The position numbers and the translations under genes are program-made. The notes under the pieces are model-generated. The model was not told where the DNA came from, searched no databases, and saw nothing but the letters and a program-made list of their open reading frames with translations. Shown piece after piece: positions 834 to 63,664 of a DNA stretch of 64,000 nucleotides. This DNA comes from a bacterium. GTDB taxonomy: Bacteria; RUG730; JAAEPJ01. The stretch lies in NCBI GenBank assembly GCA_024222485.1, contig JAAEPJ010000072.1, positions 11,897 to 75,896 of the forward strand, in the 5' to 3' direction. Positions within the stretch are counted from its first letter, which is position 1, and every line of letters starts with the position of its first letter.

Positions 834-1763
834 TTACTTAAATAAAAAACAAGGGTTTTTATCCGTAATAATATTAACCTCATTAGCTAAAATATTTCTC
901 AAGTGCTTTGGCATACTAAACATCCGAAGATGTGCTCCTGAATCATAATACTTTAAATTATCAACAATTAATTTCTCCCCTAAAAATACTTCGATATTAT
1001 CAGAGAAAGCTAAAATATCTTGACTAGCATCATTAACTGCAATATTAAATCCCCATGGAATAATAAATGAAGGCACATAAGAAGAAAAAGGAATAACTTT
1101 AGCAAAAACCTCTTTAAGCGTTGCATTAATTGAAGAAAAGACTTTAAATCCAGGGATATCCCCAGGACCAGATTGTACAAGCAGCACACCTTTTTCCGTT
1201 AAATGTTTCTTTAAAATCTGATAAAACTCAATAGTATAAAGAAAGCAAGACGGTGACCCCTCAATAGGACAACATAAATCAGAAATAATAACATCAAACT
1301 TTGCATCATGATTAGCAAGGTAATCTTTCGCATCATTAATAACTAGAGTCGCCCGAGGATCATCAAAAGATCCCTGATGAAATATTTGTAAATACTTTCG
1401 ACAAAAGTCCACGACTTCTCCATCAATATCAACCATAACAACTTCTTCTAATGACTTATACTTTAAAACTTCCCTTAATGTTGCACCTTCACCACCACCA
1501 AGAATTAAAACTCGTTTTGGGTTAGGATGTAAAAGCATTGCTGGATGGACAATAGATTCATGATAAATATATTCATCTAACTCAGTTGATTGAACTTCTC
1601 CATCTAGAACCAGTGTTTTTTTATATGTTTCCATTTCTAATAACATTACTTTTTGAAAAGCGGTTTTTGTATTAATTAAAATATCTTTAATCTTATATGA
1701 ATGTTTTTCTTCAGAAGTAAACATTTCCTCAAGCCAATTATTTTTTATCATTGATCTCTCCAA
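834..1763 (-). CDS. speE: spermidine synthase (polyamine aminopropyltransferase), soluble form
   Basis: 309-aa ORF with LDGEVQSTELDEYIYHESIVHP and VLILGGGEGATLREVLKY motifs of the spermidine/spermine synthase family. It is flanked by speD and a decarboxylase. Confidence 0.9.
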   Translation of the reverse strand: MERSMIKNNWLEEMFTSEEKHSYKIKDILINTKTAFQKVMLLEMETYKKTLVLDGEVQSTELDEYIYHESIVHPAMLLHPNPKRVLILGGGEGATLREVLKYKSLEEVVMVDIDGEVVDFCRKYLQIFHQGSFDDPRATLVINDAKDYLANHDAKFDVIISDLCCPIEGSPSCFLYTIEFYQILKKHLTEKGVLLVQSGPGDIPGFKVFSSINATLKEVFAKVIPFSSYVPSFIIPWGFNIAVNDASQDILAFSDNIEVFLGEKLIVDNLKYYDSGAHLRMFSMPKHLRNILANEVNIITDKNPCFLFK

Positions 1764-1814: not shown

Positions 1815-2207
1815 TTAAGAGGCATCTGGTTTATGCTTAATAACCACACCTTCTTTCGGACTCATAATGCCTCTCTTTATCTCCATAACACTAACATTTT
1901 TCGCCTCAAAAGCTTCCTCTAAAAACTCATATGCTTTCCAAGGTTGAACTTCATCTCCACAGGTATAAATATCCACGGAGGCAAGACCATATTCTGGCCA
2001 AGTGTGAATGGCCAAATGTGACTCTGCAATTACGATAACACCACTTACACCATAAGGGTTAAAAGAATGAAAAATAATATCCACAATCGTAGCACTTGTA
2101 GCTTTAGCAGCACCAACCATGGCCTTCTCTACAATCTTAACATTTCTAATTGAGTCTACATTACATTCATATAGTTCCGCAATAATATGTCTACCGAGAG
2201 ACTTCAT
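1815..2207 (-). CDS. speD: S-adenosylmethionine decarboxylase proenzyme (small pyruvoyl type)
   Basis: 130-aa ORF. The VIVIAESHLAIHTWPEYG segment contains the E-S self-cleavage site typical of the short bacterial/archaeal AdoMetDC class. Confidence 0.88.
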   Translation of the reverse strand: MKSLGRHIIAELYECNVDSIRNVKIVEKAMVGAAKATSATIVDIIFHSFNPYGVSGVIVIAESHLAIHTWPEYGLASVDIYTCGDEVQPWKAYEFLEEAFEAKNVSVMEIKRGIMSPKEGVVIKHKPDAS

Positions 2208-11793: not shown

Positions 11794-12561
11794 CTATTTT
11801 TTCCCGACATACCAATATCCAACACCAATAAATAAGGCTCCACCGACAACATTACCTAATGTTACAGGTATTAAGTTAGCAAAGCAACCTCCCCAAGAAA
11901 CAGCAGAGGATGTACTAGGTCCAAATAAAGACAAACCAAAAATTGTCATATTAGCAATACTATGTTCAAATCCCGAACCAATAAAAGCAAACAAGCACCA
12001 AAAAATTAATAAAATTTTAGCAGCATCATTTGTTGTCCGCAGATTCATCCATAAAGCTAAACATACCAACATATTACAAAGAATACCTCTAAAAAACAAA
12101 GACCAAAAAGGCAAAGTCATTTTCACAATACTTACTTTCTCGATAAAATCAAAAGTAGCGTGATTTGAAAGCAAGCCTGAAAAATAAATAAAATACGCTA
12201 TCAACAATGACCCTAAAAAATTACCCAAATAACATACAATCCATAACTTTAGTGTATCCAACCATTTTACACTTTTTGATAGTGATCCAATAGTCATAAT
12301 CATATTATTACCCGTGAATAGTTCTGAACCTGCAAAAACAACGACTGTAAGAGCAACTCCAAAGGATGCAGCCATTAAGGCTTTTATAATAGGCAGACCT
12401 GCAACTTCTAACGGAGCACCAATTGAAAAAATCAAAATAACACCAAAGCCGACATAAATTCCTGCCATCATTGCTAGAATAAAATACTTTAAAAAACTAT
12501 TATTCAACATATTAATCTTTAACTGACTTGCTTTAATAATTTTTTCTAGCGTTTCATTCAT
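11794..12561 (-). CDS. nirC: formate/nitrite transporter (FNT) family channel, likely nitrite
   Basis: 255-aa polytopic ORF with FNT-type motifs (GSELFTGN, FEHSIANM), immediately downstream of nirBD. Confidence 0.8.
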   Translation of the reverse strand: MNETLEKIIKASQLKINMLNNSFLKYFILAMMAGIYVGFGVILIFSIGAPLEVAGLPIIKALMAASFGVALTVVVFAGSELFTGNNMIMTIGSLSKSVKWLDTLKLWIVCYLGNFLGSLLIAYFIYFSGLLSNHATFDFIEKVSIVKMTLPFWSLFFRGILCNMLVCLALWMNLRTTNDAAKILLIFWCLFAFIGSGFEHSIANMTIFGLSLFGPSTSSAVSWGGCFANLIPVTLGNVVGGALFIGVGYWYVGKK

Positions 12562-35820: not shown

Positions 35821-37344
35821 TTAGGTCATTACTCGAGCAACAATGACAACCTTTGTATTTCTTTGCCTAATCCTATCCCAGCGATCTTCTTCAAAGCTTT
35901 TAATTTTTTCTATTTTCTGTTTTTGTTTTACTACTAAAATGCGCATTTTTCTTTGAAGTTCAAATTCCTTAACTCGTTCATCTTTTTGTTTCTTTTTATC
36001 TAACAAAATTTCGCTTTGCTTAATCGCGTCTAAAATCTTTTTGATACGGATTTCTTCTTTTTTTAGCACACCATCCTCTATCATTGTTTTATAATTATCC
36101 AAAAATACAAATATTAAGTTACGCATATTAAGCTCTAACTTTTTAATTGAAAAAAATTCTTTCTTATATACTTTAACGGTATTATCCAAATAAACATCAT
36201 AAACGTCTAGCTCTAACATAAAACTATCCCCTACCCCTAAGTCATATAGGTCAAAACTAAGGACCAAGTGTGCTTTTAGCGTATCCGTAGATTTATAAAT
36301 ATCAACCTTTTGATAATTCGAATCATCTAGAATATTCAATTTGTTTTCATATCTCAAATATTTTAAAATTAAGGGTCTCATCTGTGAATGTCCCGTATAT
36401 TCAGACACAACTACTTTATAGTTTTGATGTGCTCTTGTTTCTGCTAATCCTTTTTTCTTTTCTTGGTTTTTCTTTGTCTTATATTCTGTTTTATTCATAA
36501 AAAAAGACAAAGTTAAATAATGTAAATACCCGAGCTCTCCACGCTTAGAAAAAGCATAATCTATCCTACGACCATTTATTTCCAAGCTAAACCCCAACTT
36601 AATACCAGACATAAAATCCATATAAGGATCAATTAGATCATTATCCACTCCTGCATAAATATTAAAATTTTCACTAATATCAGATTCAAAAGCAAAAGAG
36701 ATTTCATCGCTGCTATAAAAATTGAAGTACCAGTCCACCCAATATTTTTTATTGATACCAAAGGCAAAATTATAGTTTTCATCATCACCAAAATTTAAAA
36801 GTGAAAGTCCTACGGCTAAATCTTTACCAAAAACAGCATTGACACCAAGGTCTAAGGAGTTGCTTGCATAAACCTTATCGCTACCAACACGAGCCTCCTC
36901 AATATTAAGCCTTAAACCAAAATCAAGTGGCAGAGAAGAATTATAAGGTATAATTTTTTGGGAATACAAAATACCCAACAAGTCTTGCTTGTACTCACTT
37001 TTCCCTAAAAAAACATTGTCATCATTCCATATTTCAACACCTTTACTGACAAACTGGGAATAACTTAACTCTGCATTACCCTGATAGAGAGGAAACGAAC
37101 CCATAACTTGCCTAATATTCTCTTCATATTCCATTGGCACATATGAAGCGGAAATAATATAATTATCTTTAGCAAACACATTTAAAGCTGGATTATAAAA
37201 AGATCCATGATATGAATCATTCTCCGCGACATTTTTCAAAACAATACTATGAGCGTTCACAGATAAGTCTTCCACAGAAGCAAATACTGCTGCCCCCATA
37301 AAAAATAAAAATAATACCAGCAAATATTTTTGCAGCATATTCAT
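35821..37344 (-). CDS. signal-peptide protein: PorV/PorQ/UPF0164-like outer-membrane beta-barrel half plus a Lys/Glu-rich coiled-coil C-terminal half
   Basis: Signal peptide (LLVLFLFFMGAAVFASV), an FYNPALN motif and alternating-hydrophobic beta-strand pattern up to about residue 285. This is followed by about 220 aa ending in KKKQKDERVKEFELQRKMRILVVKQKQKIEKIK. The start overlaps the upstream gene stop as ATGA (37341-37344). Confidence 0.5.
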   Translation of the reverse strand: MNMLQKYLLVLFLFFMGAAVFASVEDLSVNAHSIVLKNVAENDSYHGSFYNPALNVFAKDNYIISASYVPMEYEENIRQVMGSFPLYQGNAELSYSQFVSKGVEIWNDDNVFLGKSEYKQDLLGILYSQKIIPYNSSLPLDFGLRLNIEEARVGSDKVYASNSLDLGVNAVFGKDLAVGLSLLNFGDDENYNFAFGINKKYWVDWYFNFYSSDEISFAFESDISENFNIYAGVDNDLIDPYMDFMSGIKLGFSLEINGRRIDYAFSKRGELGYLHYLTLSFFMNKTEYKTKKNQEKKKGLAETRAHQNYKVVVSEYTGHSQMRPLILKYLRYENKLNILDDSNYQKVDIYKSTDTLKAHLVLSFDLYDLGVGDSFMLELDVYDVYLDNTVKVYKKEFFSIKKLELNMRNLIFVFLDNYKTMIEDGVLKKEEIRIKKILDAIKQSEILLDKKKQKDERVKEFELQRKMRILVVKQKQKIEKIKSFEEDRWDRIRQRNTKVVIVARVMT

Positions 37345-39845
37345 TTAATAACGACCTTTTTCATAAGTTTAGAGTCTGCAGTTTTATAAAATAGATAATA
37401 AATACCTTTGGAAAGTCCACGACCTTGCCAGGTGCGAGAATACCCCCCTTTGACCTTATTCTCATCAACTAATTTCTCTACCATCTTACCTTTAACATCA
37501 TAAACTAAAATCTCTACACTCGAATCATTACGGACATTATAGACAATATTTGTCCCCTGAGATTTAGAAAATGGGTTTGGATAAGTATGAATATCATCCT
37601 TTAAAACATTAAGAGCATAATCCCTTATTAAAACAATTACATTATTCTCTTCACTATTATAAAGCATTCTATGTTCATCAGAAGAAGAATAGCCTAACTT
37701 GGTTGTAATAATACGCGTTTGTTCTCCCTTAGTAATAGGCATAGCTGAGGCAAATTCGCCCTGACTATCTGTGATAAATTTTAAAGTGCTTGTCGCTACA
37801 GCAATACTCACGCTCACACCACTGATTGGATTCCCATATTGATCAAGCACTATGCCCGCTAAAGTTCCAATAGAACGATCAACACCTTCCAATACATCAA
37901 AATAACGCAGACCACTAGCTCCAGCAGCGGCATGATTTTGATATAAATAATCATCCTCACCATCACCATCAACATCAACTATTTTAGTAACAGCAACTGC
38001 AGCTACATCTAAAAACCAAACAAAAACCTCAGTATCCTGTGCATAGAATATTCGGTCCAAACCATCATATCCTTTAAAAGTTGCATTATCATTAAAGCTA
38101 ACAAAGTTATCGTTAGGAGAAAAAGCAAGATCATAATTACCATCACCAGTAATATCTAAATTATAGCTAGCAAATGTTTCTGCTACGGACTCAACTGACT
38201 CACTGCTAATTGACTGCGTATCATCATTTTCATCCACAATCATAGACACAGCCTTAAGATAACGCGTGTATTCTCTCCCTACAGCAAGACCTTCCTCCTC
38301 TAAATAAAATGTTGTATTAGCAGTCAAAGTAGTGCTCGCAACAATAACTTTCCCCTCTGAGTTAGAAATTTCATAGCCTAATTCTACAGCAGAATTATCT
38401 ATCCAGCTCCACTGAATCGCCACACTCGACTTTGCTACCCCCTGAAACGCAGTAGGCGGCTTAAGACCTGAGCTTACGGTAGCAGTCGTTTCCAAAATTG
38501 AGTCTTGTAAGCCATCATTCGTAAGAACAGAAACATAATAGCTTGTCTCTGGCAGAAGGTCCGCAATACTTGCAGTAATTGTTTCACCTATTCCTCTAGT
38601 AGCTGGAGGGTTTGGCATTACCCCGCTTTTAAGAGTCGCTTCACTAGTTGCGTCCATAGAGTAATATACCTTATAAGAGACAATAGCTTGTGTATCCGGG
38701 GCATCATTAGGCTCTGTCCACTGAATTTTTACTTGATTATTTTCTGTTGGATCACCCCCTGTTAAACCTATTACTGCCTGAGGGGGGATAGTATCAACTT
38801 TAATAACATACTCAGCAGTCGTATACTCATTCAAAGTATTGGAAGCCATAATTTTAATAATATTCTGAGTTAAGGATGAAGGGAGGTCATCAGCGGGAAA
38901 AGAAATTATGCCAGAATTTGATGCTACCGCTGAATCATATTCCCAGTACTGCCACTCACGCCAAGTAGTTCCAGCGTCTGTTGAAATAGCATAGGCTACC
39001 GGTCCATAGTTTGCTAGAACCTGCTCAGGCTCACTCTTGGTAGTTGTGGAAATTCTCAGCTCATCAAAATAACCTTGAAAACTATCATTGCCACCTGCAC
39101 CTCTCCCACAAACACGAAAGGAGTTAGTGCTTCCAGCAATAGAGCCACTATGGATAGCGGAAGAATCCAAAACGCCATTTATAAAAATTTCTTTTGTTGA
39201 TTCATCAAAAAGAAATGCTAAATAATGCCACTCACTATTCGCCTCATCACCAAAAATTTTCACACTAGTCAGTGTACCACCACTTGTTATCCATTCTAAC
39301 TGCTGAGTCTCTGATGACAACTTGACTGTAAAAATATCATCACCAGAGAGATCATTCCCTTGGTAGATTAGATATTGAGTTGTTGTAATAGATGGTAATG
39401 GTTTAAACCAAAACTCGATTGTTCCGATTGTTATTCCTATTTGGAATAAAGTCTCATGACTCAAAACATATTCTGTATTTCCATTACTGTAGATACTTTT
39501 TTCAAAACTATCTGCAACTATTGTGCCTGCAGAAAGAATAAGCATTCCTTCTGAGTCCAAAGTTAATGGCGGGGTATTCCCACTATTGCCAGCAAAACTG
39601 CTACTGCTATCAAGAAGCTGATTAAAATGCCATAAATATGCTGTATTTTCATCTACACTAAAGATATGCCGTATATTATCAACTTGAGTATCATTATCAG
39701 AAATACTCACTTGAATAGCAGGGTTCTGGTTATTAATTTTTTCTGATGTTAAAGATCCATCATCAACCAAAAATGCAGAAATACTAATTTCCGCTTTTAA
39801 AATTGAGATCATTAATAAAAAAAGAATCGCTAATATTTTTTTCAT
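37341..39845 (-). CDS. large secreted/surface protein: LamG-like jelly roll, 2 Fn3 domains, acidic DxDGD segments, CarboxypepD_reg-like domain and a T9SS type-A-like C-terminal sorting domain
   Basis: Signal peptide MKKILAILFLLMISILKA. The LamG-like segment is IEFWFKP...WHYLAFLFDES...GYFDELRIS. The Fn3-like segments include VKIQWTEPND...YYVSV. The C-terminus is YPNPFSKSQGTNIVY...VEILVYDVKGKMV...GIYYLFYKT...KKVVIK. Confidence 0.7.
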   Translation of the reverse strand: MKKILAILFLLMISILKAEISISAFLVDDGSLTSEKINNQNPAIQVSISDNDTQVDNIRHIFSVDENTAYLWHFNQLLDSSSSFAGNSGNTPPLTLDSEGMLILSAGTIVADSFEKSIYSNGNTEYVLSHETLFQIGITIGTIEFWFKPLPSITTTQYLIYQGNDLSGDDIFTVKLSSETQQLEWITSGGTLTSVKIFGDEANSEWHYLAFLFDESTKEIFINGVLDSSAIHSGSIAGSTNSFRVCGRGAGGNDSFQGYFDELRISTTTKSEPEQVLANYGPVAYAISTDAGTTWREWQYWEYDSAVASNSGIISFPADDLPSSLTQNIIKIMASNTLNEYTTAEYVIKVDTIPPQAVIGLTGGDPTENNQVKIQWTEPNDAPDTQAIVSYKVYYSMDATSEATLKSGVMPNPPATRGIGETITASIADLLPETSYYVSVLTNDGLQDSILETTATVSSGLKPPTAFQGVAKSSVAIQWSWIDNSAVELGYEISNSEGKVIVASTTLTANTTFYLEEEGLAVGREYTRYLKAVSMIVDENDDTQSISSESVESVAETFASYNLDITGDGNYDLAFSPNDNFVSFNDNATFKGYDGLDRIFYAQDTEVFVWFLDVAAVAVTKIVDVDGDGEDDYLYQNHAAAGASGLRYFDVLEGVDRSIGTLAGIVLDQYGNPISGVSVSIAVATSTLKFITDSQGEFASAMPITKGEQTRIITTKLGYSSSDEHRMLYNSEENNVIVLIRDYALNVLKDDIHTYPNPFSKSQGTNIVYNVRNDSSVEILVYDVKGKMVEKLVDENKVKGGYSRTWQGRGLSKGIYYLFYKTADSKLMKKVVIK

Positions 39846-40048: not shown

Positions 40049-41455
40049 CTATTTTATCTTAAAATCATGCTCCTGACTAGAAATATAAACCAAAGAATCT
40101 CGCTCTTTAAGTTGAAAATTCTCTGGATTTAAGTTATAAATTCCATCTCGCTCAACCCCAATCAAAATTGAGCTATACTTATTAAAAATATCTACAACAC
40201 ACTGACTAAAAATTTCACCACAAAATTCACTATTCTTGCTAAGGGAACCATTATAAATTTGACTGCCCTCAGTAGAGCTTAAAAGTTCATTGTAAACTTT
40301 AGTAATTCCAGGATATCTAACAGCATGTGCCAAAAGATTCCCTGTATAGTTTGCAGCAATAATATATTCGTCAACACCTGCGTTTAATACATGCTCAATA
40401 TTGTCGCTAGATAAAACCTCCACACAGGTATAAACATCCGAATTAAGTTTATCAATAGCTAAGGCAGTTAAAACTGTTCTGGCGTCAATATCTTGGTTGC
40501 TCCTATTCGTTACTTGGTCAGCTAAAACAATGACAGAAGAAGCAAATACAATCTGTGCTCTTTCTAAGATATCTTTTTTAGTAAAATCACCTTTCATGTA
40601 GTGAATATTATTCGTAAAAATATATTCGGGCTGATCCTCTTTAATAATGACAAAATCTTTATCAGTATTTTTAAAAAGCTCTGTTAACTCCTTAAGAACT
40701 ATAGTTGCATTATTATTCCACCCACAAATAACAATATGGTCCTTTAAATTCATAATATCCACCCCTCTATTCTCCTTCTTCTTATAATACTTAATAATGG
40801 ATGATGAAAACATTCCTGTTATCAGTCCAAAAAAGCTCAGCCCAATAAACATAAATGCGCTAGCGAGAATTCTCCCACCAATTGTTACGGGAAATTTATC
40901 CCCATAACCAACCGTAGTAAGCGTTACAACTGCCCACCAGATACCATCAAAAAAACTTACAAACTGTTCATTATGCCCACGCTCAAAAATTGACATCCCA
41001 ATAGAGCCTACTAAAACAAGTATAAAAAGAATAAGTGAAACGGTAAAAGCTTCAAAAAAGTTTTCACTAAACTCTGAATTGAACAACTTTAGTTTTGCAG
41101 AAACAATTTTTTCCCAACGGTTTAAACGAACAATTTTAATTAACCTGATGAGTCTAAGCACTCTAACTAAACGAAAAACTCTAAATATTGGTAATAATGC
41201 AATAAAGTCAATTAAATTTCCTTTAAAAAATAACCACTTATTTGTCGAAAGTAAAATTTTAATAGAATATTCAATAATAAAAAAGCTATTAAGGCTTAAT
41301 TCCAAAATATTAACAATATTATCACTAGGGGAAGTTAAGTGCATAGAGGTATCTATAATAAGGAGCACAATTGAAGCAATAATCGCCATAATTACCAATG
41401 CTTCAAAAAAAGTTGAATAAATAAATTTATAAATATTGCTGCGTATACTTTGCAT
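40049..41455 (-). CDS. voltage-sensor-containing K+ channel with cytoplasmic RCK/TrkA-N domain
   Basis: S4-like RVFRLVRVLRLIRLIKIVRL, the selectivity filter TTVGYGD, and an RCK Rossmann segment HIVICGWNNNATIVLKEL. The ATG at 41455 lies 2 nt after the upstream stop codon. Confidence 0.85.
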   Translation of the reverse strand: MQSIRSNIYKFIYSTFFEALVIMAIIASIVLLIIDTSMHLTSPSDNIVNILELSLNSFFIIEYSIKILLSTNKWLFFKGNLIDFIALLPIFRVFRLVRVLRLIRLIKIVRLNRWEKIVSAKLKLFNSEFSENFFEAFTVSLILFILVLVGSIGMSIFERGHNEQFVSFFDGIWWAVVTLTTVGYGDKFPVTIGGRILASAFMFIGLSFFGLITGMFSSSIIKYYKKKENRGVDIMNLKDHIVICGWNNNATIVLKELTELFKNTDKDFVIIKEDQPEYIFTNNIHYMKGDFTKKDILERAQIVFASSVIVLADQVTNRSNQDIDARTVLTALAIDKLNSDVYTCVEVLSSDNIEHVLNAGVDEYIIAANYTGNLLAHAVRYPGITKVYNELLSSTEGSQIYNGSLSKNSEFCGEIFSQCVVDIFNKYSSILIGVERDGIYNLNPENFQLKERDSLVYISSQEHDFKIK

Positions 41456-41457
41456 AA

Positions 41458-43002
41458 TTAATCCCAATGCCTCCATCCCTCTAAATAGTATTTCAAAACC
41501 TTTGGATTATCCATTGTATTAAGCTCCGTTTTTTGAATATTAATATCTTTCTCAAACTGAAATAACCCTGCGATCATGTCATTCCCAAGATACCTAGTCG
41601 GAACCGAAATATTAATTTTCTTATAATCAACCTTAATTTTAGAAGCCATGACAAATCCCCAATCACCAAAAGAAGGAACATAAACATGATAAGGATACAC
41701 ACTCTTAAAGCTAAGAGAGTTAATTGTATTGTATATACACCAAAATGATTTATTAGCAAAAAAAGGGCTAGTTGCTTGAGTCACCAAGATCCCTGTAGAG
41801 GCAAGTTTTGATTGTAAAACAGCATAAAACTCCTTACTATAAAGCCTTGCTATCGAAATATTATTTGGATCAGGTAAATCTATAATAATAATATCATAGA
41901 TACTTTCACTATTACGAATAAATAGGAATGCATCTTTCGAGTAAACTTTAACCCTTTGATCTTTAAAACTATTTAAATTCATTTTTTTTAAATAACTATT
42001 ATTCTTAGCCATTTTGATGATCTCAGGATCAATATCTACTAAATCTATTTCACGAATACTCGGGTACTTTAATAGTTCTCTTAAAACTAAACCATCACCA
42101 CCACCAAAAACTAACACTTTTGCTTTATGGGGAGCAATAGCCAGAGGAATATGAACTAATGGTTCATGATACCGATATTCATCAATAGAAGAAAACTGAA
42201 GATTCCCATTTAAAAACAATCTAATATCTTTTTTATTTTTTGTTAAAATAATCTTTTGATAATTAGTTTGCTTAGCAAAAATAATTCTATCTTCATATAT
42301 ACGGCTACTCCAATTTTTCATTAGGAAATTAGCAGTAAATATCAAAATAATAAACAAAATAGTTACACAAGAACAAGCTACCTTAAAAAAATGTCGTTTA
42401 AGTTTTGAAACTTTATCCCTAAAACACCAGAGAACTAAAAAACCAATAACCATATTAATTATGCCAAAAAATAAAGAACTTTTAAAAATACCTAAAAAAG
42501 GTAACAAAAAAAAAGGAAAAATAAGAGTTGCGATCAAAGCACCAAAATAATCAAGCGATAAAATATTTGAAATATTAAACTTTAATGAGTAATATTTCTC
42601 CATGATTCTAGTTAAAAGAGGTATCTCTAAGCCAATTAAAAGTCCAATAGCAATAATTAAAAAAAACATGAAAAATAAATAAAAATTAGTGTACGCATAA
42701 CCAAAATAAAGAAGTGGGACGGAGAGTCCACCGAGTAGTCCTAGAAATATTTCAACAACAATAAATTTCTCTAATAACTTGCGCTGGATAAGGCGAGAAA
42801 AATATGAACCAACACCCATCGCAGCCATGTACAAACCAATTGTTAAAGAAAATTGTTTAATGCTATCACCTAAAAAATAAGAAGAAGTCGTACTGATTAA
42901 AAGCTCATAAATTATAGAACACAAACCCGCAATAAAAACTGAGATTATGATTACGAGCTTCTCCTGCCTAACCGGTTTACTTCCCGGCATGCGGACCTCC
43001 AC
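41458..43002 (-). CDS. membrane-anchored polyamine aminopropyltransferase-like protein (N-terminal polytopic domain + spermidine synthase domain)
   Basis: About 7 predicted TM helices in residues 1-230, then YHEPLVHIPL, VLVFGGGDGLVLRELLKY and IIIDLPDP motifs of the spermidine synthase fold. Confidence 0.8.
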   Translation of the reverse strand: MEVRMPGSKPVRQEKLVIIISVFIAGLCSIIYELLISTTSSYFLGDSIKQFSLTIGLYMAAMGVGSYFSRLIQRKLLEKFIVVEIFLGLLGGLSVPLLYFGYAYTNFYLFFMFFLIIAIGLLIGLEIPLLTRIMEKYYSLKFNISNILSLDYFGALIATLIFPFFLLPFLGIFKSSLFFGIINMVIGFLVLWCFRDKVSKLKRHFFKVACSCVTILFIILIFTANFLMKNWSSRIYEDRIIFAKQTNYQKIILTKNKKDIRLFLNGNLQFSSIDEYRYHEPLVHIPLAIAPHKAKVLVFGGGDGLVLRELLKYPSIREIDLVDIDPEIIKMAKNNSYLKKMNLNSFKDQRVKVYSKDAFLFIRNSESIYDIIIIDLPDPNNISIARLYSKEFYAVLQSKLASTGILVTQATSPFFANKSFWCIYNTINSLSFKSVYPYHVYVPSFGDWGFVMASKIKVDYKKINISVPTRYLGNDMIAGLFQFEKDINIQKTELNTMDNPKVLKYYLEGWRHWD

Positions 43003-43207
43003 CTACATGACTTGGTCCACCAATGCTGCCAGCTCTAGCAGAAGAGTTAGCATAATAGCGTGGTCCACCCCAATAAAAAAAAGAAGGTCCACGATGATAT
43101 CCACGATAACCAGAATATCCCCATCCCCTTAGACTAAGCGAAAATAAAAACAGATAAAGGAGTCCCAAAAAAATCATTAAAATAAGTAATTTATGCTTAA
43201 AAGTCAT
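42977..43207 (-). CDS. small membrane protein with one TM helix and a Gly/Tyr/Arg/Pro-rich tail
   Basis: 76-aa ORF: LLILMIFLGLLYLFLF followed by RGWGYSGYRGYHRGPSFFYWGGPRYY...GGPSHVGGGPHAGK. The coding DNA is a visibly GC-rich patch in an AT-rich genome. Its 3' end overlaps the next gene by 26 nt. Confidence 0.55.
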   Translation of the reverse strand: MTFKHKLLILMIFLGLLYLFLFSLSLRGWGYSGYRGYHRGPSFFYWGGPRYYANSSARAGSIGGPSHVGGGPHAGK

Positions 43208-43233
43208 TATTAATCTCCCTGATTACCTAAGTG

Positions 43234-43791
43234 TTAAACTTCTAAATTATGATTAATATTTATTGCTATACCAATAAAAAGAGCCAAAAGCCCTACAAGG
43301 AAAAAAGGAAGAGCACTGCCATTCTTTTTAGAAACGATAATATTTATTTTATTTGCTAAATAATCATTTTTTTCAACATCAAAATTTAAATAATACCTCC
43401 CTTTTTTAGGAATAGTTATTTTCATTTTATAACTATTAACAGCCTCTCGCCAATACCCTTCTGAATCTCGCCCTTCTTCCTGCCAAAACTCTTTTCCAAA
43501 CCCACAAAGATATTCTTTCTTATCATCCAAAAGCTCCGTAGTTATAAAACTCCATTTAGAGGTGGGAACATTCTGTTTAACTTTTATAAAATAAACAGAT
43601 CGATCTTTCTTAACTTCAATAGGACCAATCTCCCCACCTGTAGCTGCTAAAGTCTGATGATATACCTTCCCACGATTCATGTTAAAAATTCCTGCAGTAA
43701 TCAAACAAATAATAGCAAAAACAATTAAAACAAACGCATATTTAATAAACTCATCATTTTTCGCTTCCTTAGGCATATTGTAAACTTCCAT
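43234..43791 (-). CDS. 2-TM membrane protein with an approximately 120-aa extracytoplasmic domain (unknown family)
   Basis: N-terminal TM (YAFVLIVFAIICLITAGIF) and C-terminal TM (LPFFLVGLLALFIGIAI). ATG at 43791 follows AAGGAGAGAGTG. Confidence 0.55.
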   Translation of the reverse strand: MEVYNMPKEAKNDEFIKYAFVLIVFAIICLITAGIFNMNRGKVYHQTLAATGGEIGPIEVKKDRSVYFIKVKQNVPTSKWSFITTELLDDKKEYLCGFGKEFWQEEGRDSEGYWREAVNSYKMKITIPKKGRYYLNFDVEKNDYLANKINIIVSKKNGSALPFFLVGLLALFIGIAININHNLEV

Positions 43792-43801
43792 CACTCTCTC
43801 C

Positions 43802-44632
43802 TTATATCATAAAAATCAATACACTTGAAAAACTTATCATTATCACAGCCTCTAAAAATGCCACACCCAAATTTTTGTCATTCTTTATTTCATCGTTCAA
43901 GTTGGATCTTGGGATAATAACTTTATCAAAAAAAATCCGCACAACAGGTAATAAAATAAACACCAAGATTAAGCTAAACAAAAACCTCAGCATATTTTCT
44001 TGCCAACTAATAAAATTACCGGACACACCCTTCATAAGAATAATCCCCAGGGATACTAATCCACCACTAAAAGCAACCCCTGCTGCAACATTGCCTGTTT
44101 TAAGCTCTTGATGTATATCAAAAGGTGTAATAAAATTATATAGCTTGGTAAATAAAACTAATGCTAGTTGCCCTAAAATATAAAACACAATCGCTGTTAA
44201 AATTCCTCCACCTTCACCACTTATAGCGCCTGCAATTATCAGCCCTGAAGCAAGATAAGAGCCAAACTGAACAGCACCTACCCCAATATTCCTTTCTTGG
44301 GTAAGCTCTTTAAGGTTGCAAAACTTATAGAGAATAGCTTTGTCATTAATAATACGAGAAATATTTAAAAGAACAATCCCTAAAATATAATAACCCGTTA
44401 TCATTAAAATATCATTTAAAAACCCTTGAGAAATACCTATTTCTGTACCGATAAAAATAATTGTGCCAGCTAATAGATAACCAGCTAAACTTAAGGCAAG
44501 TGCGGTGTTATCTTTTTGCGTTAATTCTTTATCCAAACTATATGGTGTTAACCAATCATTGACTAACTTAGCAAAAAAAATAAAAATTAGAAATAAAACT
44601 ATTAAACTACCAGAACTTAAAAGTTGATCCAT
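43802..44632 (-). CDS. DUF350-type membrane protein (tandem duplicated DUF350, YjfL-like)
   Basis: Four repeats of the N-x-A/G-x-A-x-x-x-x-G-x-x-L/I small-residue TM motif: DNTALALSLAGYLLAG, RNIGVGAVQFGSYLASG, GNVAAGVAFSGGLVSLG and KNLGVAFLEAVIMIS. Confidence 0.65.
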   Translation of the reverse strand: MDQLLSSGSLIVLFLIFIFFAKLVNDWLTPYSLDKELTQKDNTALALSLAGYLLAGTIIFIGTEIGISQGFLNDILMITGYYILGIVLLNISRIINDKAILYKFCNLKELTQERNIGVGAVQFGSYLASGLIIAGAISGEGGGILTAIVFYILGQLALVLFTKLYNFITPFDIHQELKTGNVAAGVAFSGGLVSLGIILMKGVSGNFISWQENMLRFLFSLILVFILLPVVRIFFDKVIIPRSNLNDEIKNDKNLGVAFLEAVIMISFSSVLIFMI

Positions 44633-44636
44633 TCAA

Positions 44637-45251
44637 TTACTCCTCATTATTAAGACTAAAAACTTCTATTTGTGATAACTTTATAGCTTCTGAAGTTGAA
44701 ACATCATACGCATTATCCGTCCATTTCTCTATACTAATAAAATGTTTCTCATCATCAGCTTCAAAATCCCAAAAATAATAAACTTCAGGACTATTTTTAT
44801 CCGCATGTTTTAAAAATTCAGCTTTCCCTGAGTCTTCATAATAATATTTTCTATTATTATAAATAATCTCCCCATCATCATCGTTTTCTATCTTAACAAG
44901 CTTTTTGTTTGTTAAATTAAGGTCAGTTAGTTTTATTTTTTTTAAAGTGATAGAAACTTCAAGCTCATCATCATCATTTTCAAGCTCAAGCCACACTTTA
45001 TCCTTGCCATTATCACACTCAAGTTCAGTCCAATAATAATTCCCTTGTCGATAAAGATGTTTCGCAATGATGGTAAGATCAAATTCATCCAAATTAGATC
45101 CAATATTTCTTAGATGAATCACCCCTCCAACATCTACATTCTCAATTTTCAATGCTTTTGGCTTAGTTTTTTTTGTTCGCGACAAACCTTTAAACATTTT
45201 ATAAAGAATAAAACAAGCAACTATCACAAAAATTAAAATTATAAACTGCAT
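44637..45251 (-). CDS. TM-anchored DUF4178-like protein
   Basis: N-terminal TM, then YYWTELECDNGKDKVWLELENDDDELEVSI and YYFWDFEADDEKHFISIEKW. This matches the W-x-E-y...wLsvE / ...lsiE-W pattern of DUF4178. Confidence 0.6.
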   Translation of the reverse strand: MQFIILIFVIVACFILYKMFKGLSRTKKTKPKALKIENVDVGGVIHLRNIGSNLDEFDLTIIAKHLYRQGNYYWTELECDNGKDKVWLELENDDDELEVSITLKKIKLTDLNLTNKKLVKIENDDDGEIIYNNRKYYYEDSGKAEFLKHADKNSPEVYYFWDFEADDEKHFISIEKWTDNAYDVSTSEAIKLSQIEVFSLNNEE

Positions 45252-45254
45252 TTT

Positions 45255-45962
45255 TTACTCAAGCCCCATTTTTTTCTTTAAAGCAGCTAATGAGTCAGAG
45301 TTATTGCTTGTTTGTCCAGAGGCTAAAGCAGCATCAATTTCATTATCAATACTTTGATCAACCATGGCAATATCACCATAAGACTCTGCCAAAGCTTCAT
45401 CTTCAGCCACTTTATCTTTCATTTTTTCAAGCATCGTAATTGTACCGGAAGAATCTACTTTTGCCAGTTGAGCATTAAGTTTTTTAGTAGCAGAACTCAC
45501 TTTAGCTCTAGCTTTTAAAGCAACCGCTTCATTTTCCCATTGTCTAACTTGAGCTTTTATCGCCTGACAATTAGATTCAAGTTTAGCAATCATTTTTTCA
45601 TTATTAGCTAAGTTTTGAGTAAGTGACATAGCCATCTTCAAGGCTTCATCTTTCTTAGCTAAAGCCTCTCCAGCTAACCTTTCAGCCTCAGCTGGATCTA
45701 CCTCCCCTTTCTGAGCTTTTGTTAGCAATAGCATAGCTTTTTTCTCATAATCTGTGGCAATCTCTTTTTTTTCATCCGACTCTCTCTTAGTTCGAATAGT
45801 TATAGCTTTAACCTCAGCTAAACTTTTTAAACTATTTTCTAAATCTTGTTTAAGATCTCGAATACCTTGTTCTGTCATTTTAACAGGATCCTCAAACTTA
45901 TCTAAGGCAGCATGAGCCTCTGCTTGAGTAAACTTAAATAATCTTTTAAATACATGCATCAT
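45255..45962 (-). CDS. pspA: PspA/IM30 (ESCRT-III-like) family protein, YjfJ-like
   Basis: 235-aa all-helical coiled-coil ORF with FKRLFKFTQAEAHAALDKFEDPVKMTEQGIRDLKQDL at the N-terminus and a C-terminal LAALKKKMG, as in PspA/YjfJ. Confidence 0.85.
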   Translation of the reverse strand: MMHVFKRLFKFTQAEAHAALDKFEDPVKMTEQGIRDLKQDLENSLKSLAEVKAITIRTKRESDEKKEIATDYEKKAMLLLTKAQKGEVDPAEAERLAGEALAKKDEALKMAMSLTQNLANNEKMIAKLESNCQAIKAQVRQWENEAVALKARAKVSSATKKLNAQLAKVDSSGTITMLEKMKDKVAEDEALAESYGDIAMVDQSIDNEIDAALASGQTSNNSDSLAALKKKMGLE

Positions 45963-45974
45963 TTTTTATACTCC

Positions 45975-46397
45975 TTATCTTGCAAATAAAATTATTTGAT
46001 CAGAATATTCTGCCAAAGCTAGACCTAAGGCATTAATAGATCCTTCTAATTCATTAAAATCTAAATTTTCTAATTGTAGAGTGTCTCGAAATATCAACTT
46101 ATCCCCTGAGTCATTAATAACAAATGCACCATGAATTATTTCTCTATTCCACTTTAACAAGGTCTTAAACATTGCTGTAGACTCAGTTTTAATATCAAAA
46201 ATTACCTGTTCTAAAATAATAATCGGGGACTCACAGTCAATAATAAGATCTTTAATCCCTTTTGATTCATCTGTAACAACTAGAATTTCCTCTTCTGGAC
46301 TCTCAAACTCTATCTGACATCCCATTGTATACAAATAATTTTTTACATCTTCAAATTTAACAGCCATAATACTATTATCCTCCTTGGTTTCGTTCAT
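45975..46397 (-). CDS. small acidic cytosolic protein, YbjN/YjfI (DUF2170)-like
   Basis: The pattern EEEILVVTDE...LIIDCESPIIILEQVIF...LLKWNREIIHGAFVIN...LENLDFNELEGSINAL resembles the YbjN-like chaperone fold proteins found beside PspA paralogues. A better start may be the ATG at 46367 (MAVKFEDV), which is preceded by AAGGAGG. Confidence 0.5.
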   Translation of the reverse strand: MNETKEDNSIMAVKFEDVKNYLYTMGCQIEFESPEEEILVVTDESKGIKDLIIDCESPIIILEQVIFDIKTESTAMFKTLLKWNREIIHGAFVINDSGDKLIFRDTLQLENLDFNELEGSINALGLALAEYSDQIILFAR

Positions 46398-46621: not shown

Positions 46622-47115
46622 TTAAAAGAAGGTTTTATCCAAACCATCTTTTTTAAAAAAACTGCTTCTAAAAAAGCATTCTACACGTTGAATTTTAGTT
46701 AAAAAATTCTTTAAAGTAGTACTTCCTCGATCTGAAAAACCTTCAAGATCATCATAAATTTGATTATAATACTTTGCTTCTACTTGCTCTAAAATAATTT
46801 ATCCTTTTTTAGTCAAAATTAGATTATAACTTCGTCTATCAGCCTCAGCAGCCATTCTTTTAATGAGTCCTTTGCTTTCCATGATATCAATAATAACTGT
46901 CATACTTGATTTTCAACCATAATTTTATCAGCTAGTTCTTTTTATGTTAAAAAATTAGAGGCATATTTTATAGCCATTAAAACATTAAACTGTAACTCTG
47001 TTAGCTCGAATGTTTTGAGTAAACTTCTAAACTGTTTTGTCAAAATCTGCGAAGGCCACCATAAACTAATTAATATTTCGTGTTTTTTATCTCTAAATTT
47101 TATTGGGAAGTCCAT
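46622..47115 (-). pseudogene. MarR-family transcriptional regulator pseudogene (2 in-frame TAA stops + 1 frameshift)
   Basis: Own translation gives MDFPIKF...LTELQFNVLMAIKYASNFLT*KELADKIMVENQ(frameshift)SSMTVIIDIMESKGLIKRMAAEADRRSYNLILTKKG*IILEQVEAKYYNQIYDDL... This carries the winged-helix MarR pattern (L-T-x-x-Q-x-x-V-L, ELA, GLI-x-R, D-R-R, L-T-x-x-G). Confidence 0.8.
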
Positions 47116-47883: not shown

Positions 47884-48120
47884 TCAATTCTTAGACTTTC
47901 TTCCTCGAGCCATTTTAGCTCTTGAAACATCGCCTTCTTTATCTAAAAAATAAAGAAAACCTTTCTCTCTTGATATACCAACCTTGATAACTTTTTCAGG
48001 ACTTCCACCTTTTTCGTTTCCTCGAGCCATTGTTGCTCTTGAAACATCACCTTCTTTATCAAGGTAATAAAGAAAACCTTTCTCTCTTTTAACACCTACT
48101 TTTGCAACTTTTTCTGCCAT
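47884..48120 (-). CDS. small basic protein made of two tandem approximately 37-aa repeats (unknown family)
   Basis: The repeats are KVAKVGVKREKGFLYYLDKEGDVSRATMARG and KVIKVGISREKGFLYFLDKEGDVSRAKMARG. It has a strong ribosome-binding site (AGAGGAGGATTCTTAAATG) and its own terminator. Confidence 0.7.
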   Translation of the reverse strand: MAEKVAKVGVKREKGFLYYLDKEGDVSRATMARGNEKGGSPEKVIKVGISREKGFLYFLDKEGDVSRAKMARGRKSKN

Positions 48121-48250: not shown

Positions 48251-48338
48251 CGGAGAGGGAGGGATTCGAACCCTCGCCAGGACTAATCCTGCTACAGGTT
48301 TAGCAAACCCGCCCCTTCAGCCACTTGGGTACCTCTCC
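48251..48338 (-). tRNA. tRNA-Ser (anticodon GCU), class II with long variable arm; no encoded CCA
   Basis: Hand-folded: GGAGAGG acceptor, anticodon stem CGGGT/ACCTG with loop TTGCTAA, variable arm TAGCAGGATTAGTCCTGGC, and T-arm GAGGG-TTCGAAT-CCCTC. Confidence 0.9.
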
Positions 48339-54439: not shown

Positions 54440-54560
54440 CCCGCGAAAGGTTTTTTTATTAAAAATAGGGATAAATTAAGGTGTTCTGGCTTTAACAGTA
54501 GCGCGTCTGCGGCTGGTTTTCACAGCACTTCCCCTTAAGTTTACTTATCTTCTATTCTCC
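54440..54560 (-). promoter_or_regulatory. cobalamin (B12) riboswitch in the leader of the TonB-dependent receptor gene
   Basis: The minus strand reads CTTAAGGGGAAGTGCTGTGAAAACCAGCCGCAGACGCGCTACTGTTAAAGCCAGAACACCTTAA. This resembles the core AAGGGAA..GGTGAAAATCC...GC.G.CCCGC.ACTGT and the 3' GCCAG.A.ACCT element, with TTAAGG/CCTTAA able to close P1. Confidence 0.7.
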
Positions 54561-63222: not shown

Positions 63223-63295
63223 GGGTCGGTAGCTCAGCTGGTAGAGCACGTCCCTTTTAAGGATGTGGCCGAGCGTTCGAATCGCTCCCGGCTCA
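63223..63295 (+). tRNA. tRNA-Lys (anticodon UUU)
   Basis: Hand-folded cloverleaf: GGGTCGG acceptor, D-arm GCTC/GAGC, anticodon stem CGTCC/GGATG with loop CTTTTAA, and T-arm GAGCG-TTCGAAT-CGCTC. Confidence 0.9.
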
Positions 63296-63331
63296 TAATA
63301 AAGTAGCTATTTAATTTAGTACATTGCTTTT

Positions 63332-63403
63332 GCCTCCATAGACTAGCGGTTAGGTCACCGCCCTTTCACGGCGGCAGCAGGGGTTCAAATCCCCTTGGAG
63401 GTA
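63332..63403 (+). tRNA. tRNA-Glu (anticodon UUC)
   Basis: Anticodon stem CCGCC/GGCGG with loop CTTTCAC, T-arm AGGGG-TTCAAAT-CCCCT, and acceptor GCCTCCA/TGGAGGT. Confidence 0.85.
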
Positions 63404-63441
63404 TTTTTTATAAAATTAACTTTTAAATGTTAATTAATTAA

Positions 63442-63514
63442 GGGCGGTTAGCTCAGCTGGGAGAGCATCTGCCTTACAAGCAGAGGGTCAGAGGTTCAAG
63501 TCCTCTACCGCCCA
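63442..63514 (+). tRNA. tRNA-Val (anticodon UAC)
   Basis: GGGCGGT acceptor, anticodon stem TCTGC/GCAGA with loop CTTACAA, and T-arm AGAGG-TTCAAGT-CCTCT. Confidence 0.9.
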
Positions 63515-63590
63515 TTTTTTATCAGGATAAAAATATAAAAAATTTATAGCTGACATCTTTAATTATTTTAGATAAGATATTCATTAATTG

Positions 63591-63664
63591 GGGGATGTGG
63601 TGTAGTTGGTTAACACGCAGCCCTGTCAAGGCTGAGATCGCGAGTTCGAGTCTCGTCGTCCCCG
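63591..63664 (+). tRNA. tRNA-Asp (anticodon GUC)
   Basis: GGGGATG acceptor, anticodon stem CAGCC/GGCTG with loop CTGTCAA, and T-arm GCGAG-TTCGAGT-CTCGT. Confidence 0.9.

Follow-up and report, generated by a model that had tools for sequence, protein, structure and literature searches.

A K+ channel-extended CesT/Tir-PspA operon with a membrane-fused aminopropyltransferase-like enzyme as a putative envelope-stress or surface-charge module

Overview

The gene cluster considered here is located on contig JAAEPJ010000072.1 of assembly GCA_024222485.1, which stems from a bacterium of the GTDB lineage RUG730. The analyzed stretch of 64,000 nucleotides (contig positions 11,897 to 75,896) is called the window, and all coordinates given below are window coordinates. 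Eight co-directional open reading frames (ORFs) are packed into positions 40049-46397 of its minus strand. As judged from sequence and synteny, they form a real operon that belongs to the second major group (group 2) of CesT/Tir-PspA operons, in which a CesT/Tir-PspA gene pair accompanies a spermidine synthase homolog fused to seven transmembrane (TM) helices (7TM-SpeE). The clustering goes far beyond chance; the same gene set and order recur in unrelated metagenomes (loci L085 and L088). The operon class is known; new are a variant that carries a K+ channel with six TM helices and an RCK domain (6TM+RCK) and a testable topological model. On balance, and with moderate confidence, the cluster is read as one transcription unit of the CesT/Tir-PspA plus membrane SpeE-like family, extended by a K+ channel, that serves as an envelope-stress or surface-charge module.

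Architecture of the cluster

All eight ORFs were found where a first-pass annotation of the same DNA had placed them.

45975..46397, minus strand: CesT/Tir-like protein, 140 aa, first gene and PspA partner (PF22550 CesT_Tir_1)
45255..45962, minus strand: PspA/IM30 (ESCRT-III-like) coiled-coil membrane-binding protein, 235 aa (PF04012)
44637..45251, minus strand: TM-anchored DUF4178 protein (PF13785)
43802..44632, minus strand: membrane-integral YjfL-family protein with tandem DUF350 and roughly 8 TM helices (PF03994)
43234..43794, minus strand: P5, β-sandwich between two TM helices in an AlphaFold2 (AF2) model, without a Pfam family
42977..43207, minus strand: P6, 76 aa with a Gly/Tyr/Ser/Arg/Pro-rich tail, from the homolog alignment
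41458..43002, minus strand: 7TM-fused aminopropyltransferase, SpeE-like (NCBIfam PRK03612, Spermine_synth)
40049..41476, minus strand: 6TM voltage-sensor K+ channel with an RCK domain, last gene (Ion_trans, Slo-like_RCK, TrkA_N)

Counted from the first gene on, the intergenic gaps are 12, 3, 4, then 7 or 10, then 26 nt, where the range stems from the choice between two nearby start codons per gene. The genes for DUF350 and P5 are 7 nt apart with a GTG start and 10 nt apart with the ATG start at 43791. The genes for P6 and 7TM-SpeE overlap by 26 nt when the latter starts at GTG 43002 and by 14 nt with the ATG of the public gene call P0001 (510 aa). The junction between 7TM-SpeE and the channel is either a 19-nt overlap (ATG 41476) or a 2-nt gap (ATG 41455, the start in the public gene call P0121 of the channel, 468 aa). 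The spacing given in the first-pass annotation is correct under one reasonable set of these start codons, and its family assignments all hold in profile searches, which recovered PspA_IM30, DUF4178, DUF350, Spermine_synth, Ion_trans, and TrkA_N. Within the eight genes no convincing terminator was found (five weak terminator-like sites against 3.3 expected from shuffled sequence). Consensus promoter-like sites inside the cluster occur at about the chance rate, and the scan for consensus promoters and terminators is uninformative.

Relation to published operon classes

Ravi et al. 2024 (mSystems, PMC11237479) describe a “second major group” of CesT/Tir-PspA operons with six to seven genes, which encode a 7TM-fused spermine/spermidine-synthase-like protein, an 8TM YjfL/DUF350 protein, a “Ctha_1186” and low-complexity lipoprotein, a DUF4178 protein, and sometimes a ribbon-helix-helix (RHH) regulator. 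The archetype is the SO_3765 region of Shewanella oneidensis (PMC11237479). The window cluster has the CesT/Tir-PspA dyad, the 7TM-fused synthase, and an 8TM DUF350 protein together with DUF4178; a low-complexity tail on a protein predicted to lie outside the cytoplasm is probably a further common feature. The arrangement, taken for uncharacterized in the first pass, is already known from comparative genomics as group 2 of PMC11237479. Several differences to the archetype are apparent. SO_3765 opens with the lipoprotein-DUF350-SpeE block and has the dyad behind it, whereas the window operon starts with the dyad. The chaperone is of the PF22550 CesT_Tir_1 type in the window and of the DUF2170 type in SO_3765. 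The 2-TM protein P5 and the separate P6 stand in place of the group 2 lipoprotein with its low-complexity tail, the RHH regulator is missing, and the 6TM+RCK channel is appended.

The third group of PMC11237479 is of the yjfIJKLMC type and employs an ATP-grasp enzyme resembling glutathionylspermidine synthetase. The parallel to the Escherichia coli yjfIJKLMC-type locus that had been drawn in the first pass is also drawn by Ravi et al. 2024. Both classes share the dyad, DUF350, a Gly-rich/low-complexity extracytoplasmic protein, and a polyamine-related enzyme, and in some yjf-type members a K+ channel is added whose ligand-sensing domain is cytoplasmic. The enzyme of the yjf type is a ligase, whereas that of the window is an aminopropyltransferase. 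In addition, DUF2491 takes the place of DUF4178 and DUF1190 that of P5/P6, DUF350 has 4 instead of 8 TM helices, and the channel is a 2TM protein inserted after PspA instead of a 6TM protein at the operon end. In PMC11237479, a K+ channel is reported only for the ATP-grasp (yjf-type) class, exemplified by an Alteromonas 2TM channel with TrkA domains. The link between channel and operon, published for the ATP-grasp class, can be extended to the SpeE class on the basis of the loci described below.

A further relative is found outside the PspA-containing operons. Li et al. in 2019 reportedly noted clusters of SpeD, DUF350, and a membrane-fused spermidine synthase-like protein without PspA or channel, and reportedly concluded that the fusion does not make spermidine. 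These clusters share the membrane-fused SpeE-like protein and DUF350 with the window and often contain AdoMet decarboxylase, while the window operon has no SpeD of its own and adds the PspA and channel modules. The surface-spermidine system PA4773-PA4775 of Pseudomonas aeruginosa was considered as an analog and set aside, as the identities of PA4774 as a membrane fusion and of PA4775 as DUF350 were not established.

A conserved core with optional partners

For the synteny survey, 80 loci around membrane-SpeE relatives were fetched with one genome per GTDB species and annotated with profiles built from the window proteins. Further contigs were added through close homologs of SpeE and of the channel, and 18 metagenome contigs were obtained with an alignment of four P5 sequences; the latter are mostly short, and few of them extend beyond SpeE. 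The PspA and CesT profiles miss the DUF2170/YjfJ-type dyad, and the PspA counts are lower bounds.

The order DUF350-P5-P6-SpeE is kept on the 18 metagenome contigs wherever these genes occur and is also found in L001, L003, L005, L008, L010, L069, L081, L085, L088, and L089; in L002, L004, and L006, DUF350 comes after SpeE. From these sequences, DUF350-P5-P6-SpeE is the conserved core, which PspA, SpeD, and the channel may or may not accompany. Of 83 related loci, 34 encode SpeD within or next to the cluster, as do L085 and L088. Many Acidobacteriota, Chloroflexota, and other bacteria have a longer P5-domain protein and a single DUF350 before SpeE. The clusters that combine SpeD with DUF350-SpeE evidently represent the SpeD-DUF350-membrane-SpdSyn association that Li et al. 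reportedly noted in 2019. Even the nearest relatives of the operon proteins share no more than 50-60% identity with them.

L085 and L088 retain the full eight-gene order of the window. In both, the channel gene is flanked by speD and a gene for a rhomboid protease (L085:10462-11325, L088:8633-10925), neither of which is part of the window operon. A DnaJ-domain gene stands ahead of CesT in the same two loci and is likewise absent from the window operon.

The K+ channel and its linkage

The product of the last gene is, by prediction, a voltage-gated K+ channel with an RCK domain. Profile matches were obtained for Ion_trans (1.3e-22), Ion_trans_2, Slo-like_RCK (1.9e-12), TrkA_N (1.3e-10), and Castor_Poll_mid. 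The TTVGYGD filter is located at residue 187, and S4 has an uninterrupted series of nine basic residues, one at each third position. KCNQ2, MthK, and BK are the best sequence matches in the PDB. The filter, the periodic basic residues of S4, and the C-terminal RCK domain are shared with the RCK-gated channels MthK, Kch, and BK and with the voltage-gated channels KvAP and KCNQ, taken together. With a full voltage sensor and a single RCK domain in 475 aa, the window channel resembles no solved channel from end to end. An identity with E. coli Kch is ruled out by a score of 65 bits, far under the cut-off of 425 for the Kch equivalog (PRK10537).

In the GTDB sample, which was chosen without a channel query and in which several of the tandem-DUF350 loci are incomplete, a K+ channel is present in 4/12 tandem-DUF350 loci and in 1/68 of the others (Fisher p=0.0014). 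The position of the channel gene varies considerably among the related loci. It is located upstream of CesT in L081 and L082, after DUF350 in L009, on the opposite strand after SpeE in L083, and in a divergent block with CesT and PspA in L079. It follows SpeE in L030 (Bacillota), L069 (Puniceicoccaceae), L089, and L098, and it stands ahead of SpeD in L005 (Thermodesulfobacteriota). Three channel architectures are linked in this way (6TM+RCK, 2TM+RCK, and 6TM without RCK), and the linkage between channel and SpeE spans at least five phyla with varying position and strand. Channel homologs with 42-54% identity lie in or beside the operon; those with 35-36% identity are unlinked.

The first-pass annotation had allowed for the adjacency of channel and aminopropyltransferase being peculiar to this genome, and it was found to recur in related loci. 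It had also tied the channel to the PspA module. The conserved adjacency to the aminopropyltransferase stands, but the channel also occurs in L069 and L089, which lack PspA, and the link is therefore to the DUF350-P5-P6-SpeE core and not to PspA itself. Taken together with the published yjf-type channels, the sequences show that both polyamine-linked operon classes have recruited a K+ channel repeatedly and independently.

In L084 (9001-11099), a channel homolog with 52% identity, the third-closest among those listed, adjoins a lone convergent DUF4178 gene and no other operon member. This arrangement hints at a direct relationship between DUF4178 and the channel.

The membrane-fused aminopropyltransferase and its canonical paralog

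7TM-SpeE matches the NCBIfam family PRK03612 over its full length (1.2e-189, 631 bits, cut-off 472) and Spermine_synth (PF01564) at 8e-44. The longer family MFS_SpdSyn is matched with 41 bits at a cut-off of 40. The AF2 model (pLDDT 88) consists of seven TM helices, a short linker helix, and a complete aminopropyltransferase fold that lacks the N-terminal tetramerization domain. A Foldseek comparison of the model with SpeE structures gave TM-scores of 0.76-0.84, and the nearest solved sequences are thermospermine synthase and the archaeal/Thermus long-chain aminopropyltransferases. The GGGDG motif for the donor decarboxylated S-adenosylmethionine (dcAdoMet), the DxD residues D323/D325, and the acceptor site D375-L-P-D378-P are invariant in 25 relatives. 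The aminopropyltransferase domain at the C-terminus of 7TM-SpeE is predicted to be complete.

A second aminopropyltransferase is encoded near the start of the window together with the enzyme that forms the donor.

834-1763, minus strand: canonical soluble SpeE (Spermine_synth and Spermine_synt_N tetramerization domain)
1815-2207, minus strand: SpeD, AdoMet decarboxylase (PF02675 at 4.3e-43), adjoining the canonical SpeE

The window consequently holds two aminopropyltransferase paralogs and one donor-forming enzyme, with the canonical speD-speE pair about 40 kb away from the membrane-fused enzyme. Since canonical SpeE and SpeD are both present, the membrane SpeE would be a second, specialized paralog, and its donor could be supplied in trans. 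The SpeD at 1815..2207 is the likely source of dcAdoMet for the membrane enzyme.

The acceptor of the membrane enzyme may differ from that of its canonical paralog. In the abstract of their 2019 work, Li, Kurihara, Kim, Liang, and Michael are said to propose for the fusion an aminopropyl acceptor that is not putrescine, where membership of the tested proteins in PRK03612 is not confirmed. Passages in the literature citing this work describe the bacterial membrane-aminopropyltransferase fusions as not involved in spermidine or spermine synthesis, and passages in PMC11237479 and another citing paper suggest an acceptor other than putrescine. The first-pass proposal of polyamine synthesis at the membrane is doubtful in view of these reports and of the separate canonical speE-speD genes in the window.

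DUF350, P5, and P6

The DUF350 protein matches PF03994 in two stretches (1e-48), and its gene adjoins P5-P6-SpeE in related loci. Its neighbor P5 belongs to no Pfam or NCBIfam family. An exhaustive HMMER search found 389 relatives of P5 among 1.84 billion representatives clustered at 50%, and a word-indexed homolog search found only three. In the AF2 model (pLDDT 94), a β-sandwich of about 120 aa with a jelly-roll/GOLD-like appearance is placed between two TM helices. The fold search returned only generic β-sandwiches (GOLD, CBM, TNF-like, viral jelly rolls) with TM-scores of at most 0.4 on the query and no functional lead. P5 and P6 occupy the position next to DUF350 and SpeE that is equivalent to that of the “Ctha_1186” lipoprotein of the published operon, of which P5 is probably the counterpart. 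A lipobox is present in neither protein.

P6 likewise has no Pfam or NCBIfam family, and 27 complete homologs are encoded in the fetched loci. All of them (27/27) terminate in Gly-Lys. The tail consists of 29% Gly, 13% Tyr, 12% Ser, and 8% Arg, with only 1.4% Asp and Glu combined, and an alignment of 15 homologs yields the conserved motif GYGYxGY(R)GYH..GPSFWYWGGP...S.R.GS.GGPS.RGGGP..GK. The N-terminus is signal-peptide-like or a TM helix, with small residues at -3/-1. In related loci the P6 gene sits between P5 and SpeE and usually overlaps the SpeE gene. Because of the invariant terminal lysine, the small size and predicted export of the peptide, and the overlap with the transferase gene, P6 is, speculatively, a candidate acceptor or cofactor of the transferase. 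On the metagenome contig L107 (1-5026), no SpeE gene is detectable after P5-P6; this is the sole exception to the adjacency of P6 and SpeE that was seen.

The CesT/Tir-PspA-DUF4178 arm

The first gene product, which had been called YbjN/YjfI-like, matches CesT_Tir_1 (PF22550) at 1.8e-51, and its YbjN score of 17.7 bits is under the cut-off; it can be described as CesT_Tir_1/YbjN-like. It is an acidic protein (28 D/E vs 12 K/R) and a predicted cytosolic, chaperone-type protein. Its gene forms an adjacent dyad with the PspA gene, 12 nt apart. The PspA protein matches PF04012 at 1e-40 over residues 4-231. It scores 46.5 bits for TIGR02977 (cut-off 243) and 47.5 bits for LiaH (cut-off 380) and therefore represents a group of paralogs distinct from PspA proper and LiaH. 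PspB, PspC, and PspF were not detected in the cluster, either in the ORF list or in profile searches of the cluster proteins. A canonical Psp system is ruled out by the low equivalog scores and the missing PspB/PspC/PspF, and the protein is a PspA-family paralog.

The DUF4178 protein (PF13785 at 4e-20) has a single N-terminal TM helix (residues 2-20) that is followed by eight K/R within 18 residues. Hydropathy and charge predict a cytoplasmic DUF4178 domain, in agreement with Ravi et al. Sequence searches of the PDB with the DUF4178 and the CesT-like protein gave no usable relative.

The CesT-PspA dyad of the PF22550 type is kept in L009, L033, L079, L081, L083, L085, L088, and L094, and the DUF2170-type dyad is found in L005 and Shewanella. 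In L089 (1416-4521), a divergent TelA-DUF4178-DUF2617 block replaces the CesT-PspA dyad beside DUF350-P5-P6-SpeE-Kch. TelA may be a functional alternative to PspA in loci of this type.

Membrane topology and proposed working

In 25 family members of 7TM-SpeE, 248 K/R residues fall on the N-terminus and loops 2-3, 4-5, and 6-7, and 23 fall on loops 1-2, 3-4, and 5-6. Under the positive-inside rule this distribution places the N-terminus in the cytoplasm. Since the number of helices in the AF2 model is odd, the catalytic domain is probably located outside the cytoplasmic membrane. The β-sandwich of P5 is also assigned to the outside because its N-terminal tail is K/R-rich throughout the family, and the tail of P6 because of its signal-peptide-like N-terminus. 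We infer a two-sided complex, in which the SpeE catalytic domain, P5, and P6 would face outward and DUF4178, CesT, PspA, and the RCK domain would face the cytoplasm. An outward active site would have to be provided with dcAdoMet, and the 7TM “transporter-like” domain is the obvious candidate for bringing it there.

On this topology, the tandem DUF350 protein, P5, P6, and 7TM-SpeE would form an inner-membrane complex with the catalytic domain, the P5 β-sandwich, and the Gly/Tyr/Arg tail of P6 on the outside of the cytoplasmic membrane. The enzyme would take dcAdoMet from the SpeD encoded 40 kb away, and the donor would presumably pass through or along the 7TM domain. Aminopropyl groups would then be added to an acceptor, probably not the bulk putrescine pool, which would bring positive charge to the membrane surface. 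At the cytoplasmic face, the TM-anchored DUF4178 protein, the CesT-like chaperone, and PspA would sense or stabilize the stressed membrane, with the kind of stress signal presumed. The channel would pass K+, in whichever direction, depending on the membrane potential and its RCK ligand and would thereby balance charge or reset the potential as the cation load of the membrane shifts.

The coupling of membrane repair, polyamines, and K+ flux that had been suggested in the first pass is plausible and matches published speculation. For the envelope-stress or surface-charge reading, the only experimental hint comes from a relative: in E. coli strains evolved for growth at 44-45 °C, a promoter mutation leads to strong up-regulation of the sister operon yjfIJKL (PMC12492005).

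Several points weigh against this reading. The topology is drawn solely from the positive-inside rule and the AF2 helix count. Most loci of the class have no channel, which is hence accessory and not core, and the MarR-family gene upstream of the operon is decayed. We know of no precedent for an outward-facing active site that requires dcAdoMet outside the cytoplasm, nor of any member of the operons combining PspA with a polyamine-type enzyme whose function has been demonstrated. Moreover, the family reportedly tested by Li et al. in 2019 is not confirmed as PRK03612 rather than MFS_SpdSyn.

Alternative readings

Among the alternatives, a module for cation homeostasis or osmoadaptation is the strongest, although we regard it as fairly unlikely. 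The main task, in place of membrane repair, would be to trade K+ for organic polycations: the aminopropyltransferase would adjust the pool of polyamine-type cations at the membrane, the channel would move K+, and PspA would merely protect the membrane during the fluxes. Such an exchange has counterparts in known physiology, as K+ uptake is balanced by putrescine release during osmotic upshift in E. coli, and polyamines classically block K+ channels, including those of the BK type, to which the window channel is related by its PDB sequence match. It also fits that the channel follows the DUF350-P5-P6-SpeE core in the PspA-less loci L069 and L089 and that SpeD, in the absence of PspA, is a frequent companion of the core (L010 and others). 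Against such a role, only about a quarter to a half of the operons contain the channel, a separate canonical speD-speE pair for bulk polyamines is retained in the genome, and passages in the citing literature report that membrane-aminopropyltransferase fusions do not make spermidine or spermine. This alternative cannot be cleanly separated from the envelope-stress or surface-charge module.

It is improbable, in our estimate, that P6 itself is the substrate, whereby the enzyme would modify P6 (e.g., its C-terminal lysine) or another protein or lipid amine to yield a modified envelope peptide or lipid. The P6 gene immediately precedes that of SpeE, usually with an overlap, the terminal Gly-Lys is invariant in 27/27 homologs and GYGYxGYxGY...GPSFWYWGG is conserved, and the P6 tail is predicted to share its side of the membrane with the catalytic domain; passages in the literature also hint at a non-putrescine acceptor. 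Conversely, the DLPDP acceptor motif resembles that of thermospermine and long-chain polyamine synthases, and a small amine would fit equally well. P6 is also missing from 68/80 GTDB loci with a TM-fused SpeE, and to our knowledge no aminopropyltransferase acts on a peptide or a lipid.

A more ambitious form of the surface-charge idea is offered with similarly low confidence. DUF350-P5-P6-7TM-SpeE would be an extracytoplasmic aminopropylation machine, whose 7TM domain delivers dcAdoMet across the membrane to the catalytic domain at the outer face and whose acceptor is no polyamine but the Gly-Lys peptide P6 or a lipid or envelope amine. The membrane surface would thereby gain positive charge, while PspA would guard the inner leaflet and the K+ channel would compensate for the electrical effects.

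A fortuitous adjacency, in which the channel and possibly the aminopropyltransferase are independent housekeeping genes beside a PspA operon, is very improbable and already largely refuted by the synteny data. Nearly all genes of the window lie on the minus strand, and co-direction alone therefore says little; the chance-level rate of promoter-like sites within the cluster also leaves room for this explanation. It is contradicted by a linkage that spans at least five phyla although position, strand, and channel type differ, by the enrichment of the channel in tandem-DUF350 loci, and by start and stop codons that overlap or abut.

An anti-phage defense or abortive-infection system, with PspA as “phage shock” protein and the channel as membrane-depolarizing effector, is rejected as the least probable of all: ion channels and membrane effectors are common in defense systems, and integrase or transposase genes lie a few kb from the operon in L085 and L088, but no PADLOC model was matched apart from a generic methyltransferase-fold match of the SpeE domain (mad2, 5.6e-14), the window neighbors are housekeeping genes (ClpB, pantoate ligase, glycogen synthase), and the distribution is broad, vertical-looking, and associated with polyamine genes.

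Genomic surroundings

The operon is flanked by a decayed regulator gene and by an unrelated surface protein, and a few further elements were located in the window.

46670..47115, minus strand: decayed MarR-family gene directly upstream of the operon (conceptual translation matches PF01047 at 1.2e-9)
37341-39845, minus strand: large surface protein with Laminin_G_3, fn3, CarboxypepD_reg, and Por_Secre_tail, a sorting domain of the type IX secretion system (T9SS)
54471-54548, minus strand: AdoCbl-II riboswitch (47.3 bits, above the gathering threshold)
48251-48338, minus strand: tRNA upstream of the ClpB region
63223-63664, plus strand: four consecutive tRNAs at the end of the window

The reading frame of the MarR-like gene is interrupted by TAA codons at 46944-46942 and at 46801-46799 and shifts near 46903. 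The gene may be a pseudogene, and as such a lost repressor of the operon, or may reflect assembly errors, and its membership in the system is uncertain. At the other end, a gap of 203 nt separates the channel gene from the gene of the T9SS-sorted surface protein. An ORF of 78 aa at 47884-48120 (minus strand) has an internal duplication (VGVKREKGFLYYLDKEGDVSRATMARG / VGISREKGFLYFLDKEGDVSRAKMARG) and no Pfam match. The guanine plus cytosine (GC) content is about 31%, and the T9SS sorting domain of the surface protein suggests that the organism is of the Bacteroidota/FCB type. A sign change of the GC skew occurs only around 16-20 kb of the window.

Significance

PspA/IM30/ESCRT-III is a universal membrane-repair machinery, and its repeated coupling to polyamine-type enzymes is among the least understood themes of the bacterial envelope. 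The recurrent channel, its linkage to the SpeE core rather than to PspA, and the probable outer-face location of the catalytic domain beside a Gly-Lys peptide narrow the hypotheses to testable ones. For annotation, a membrane “polyamine aminopropyltransferase” in such an operon should not be counted as spermidine biosynthesis. If the extracytoplasmic aminopropylation machine were true, 7TM-SpeE would be the first aminopropyltransferase with an extracytoplasmic site of action and with a macromolecule or lipid as its substrate.

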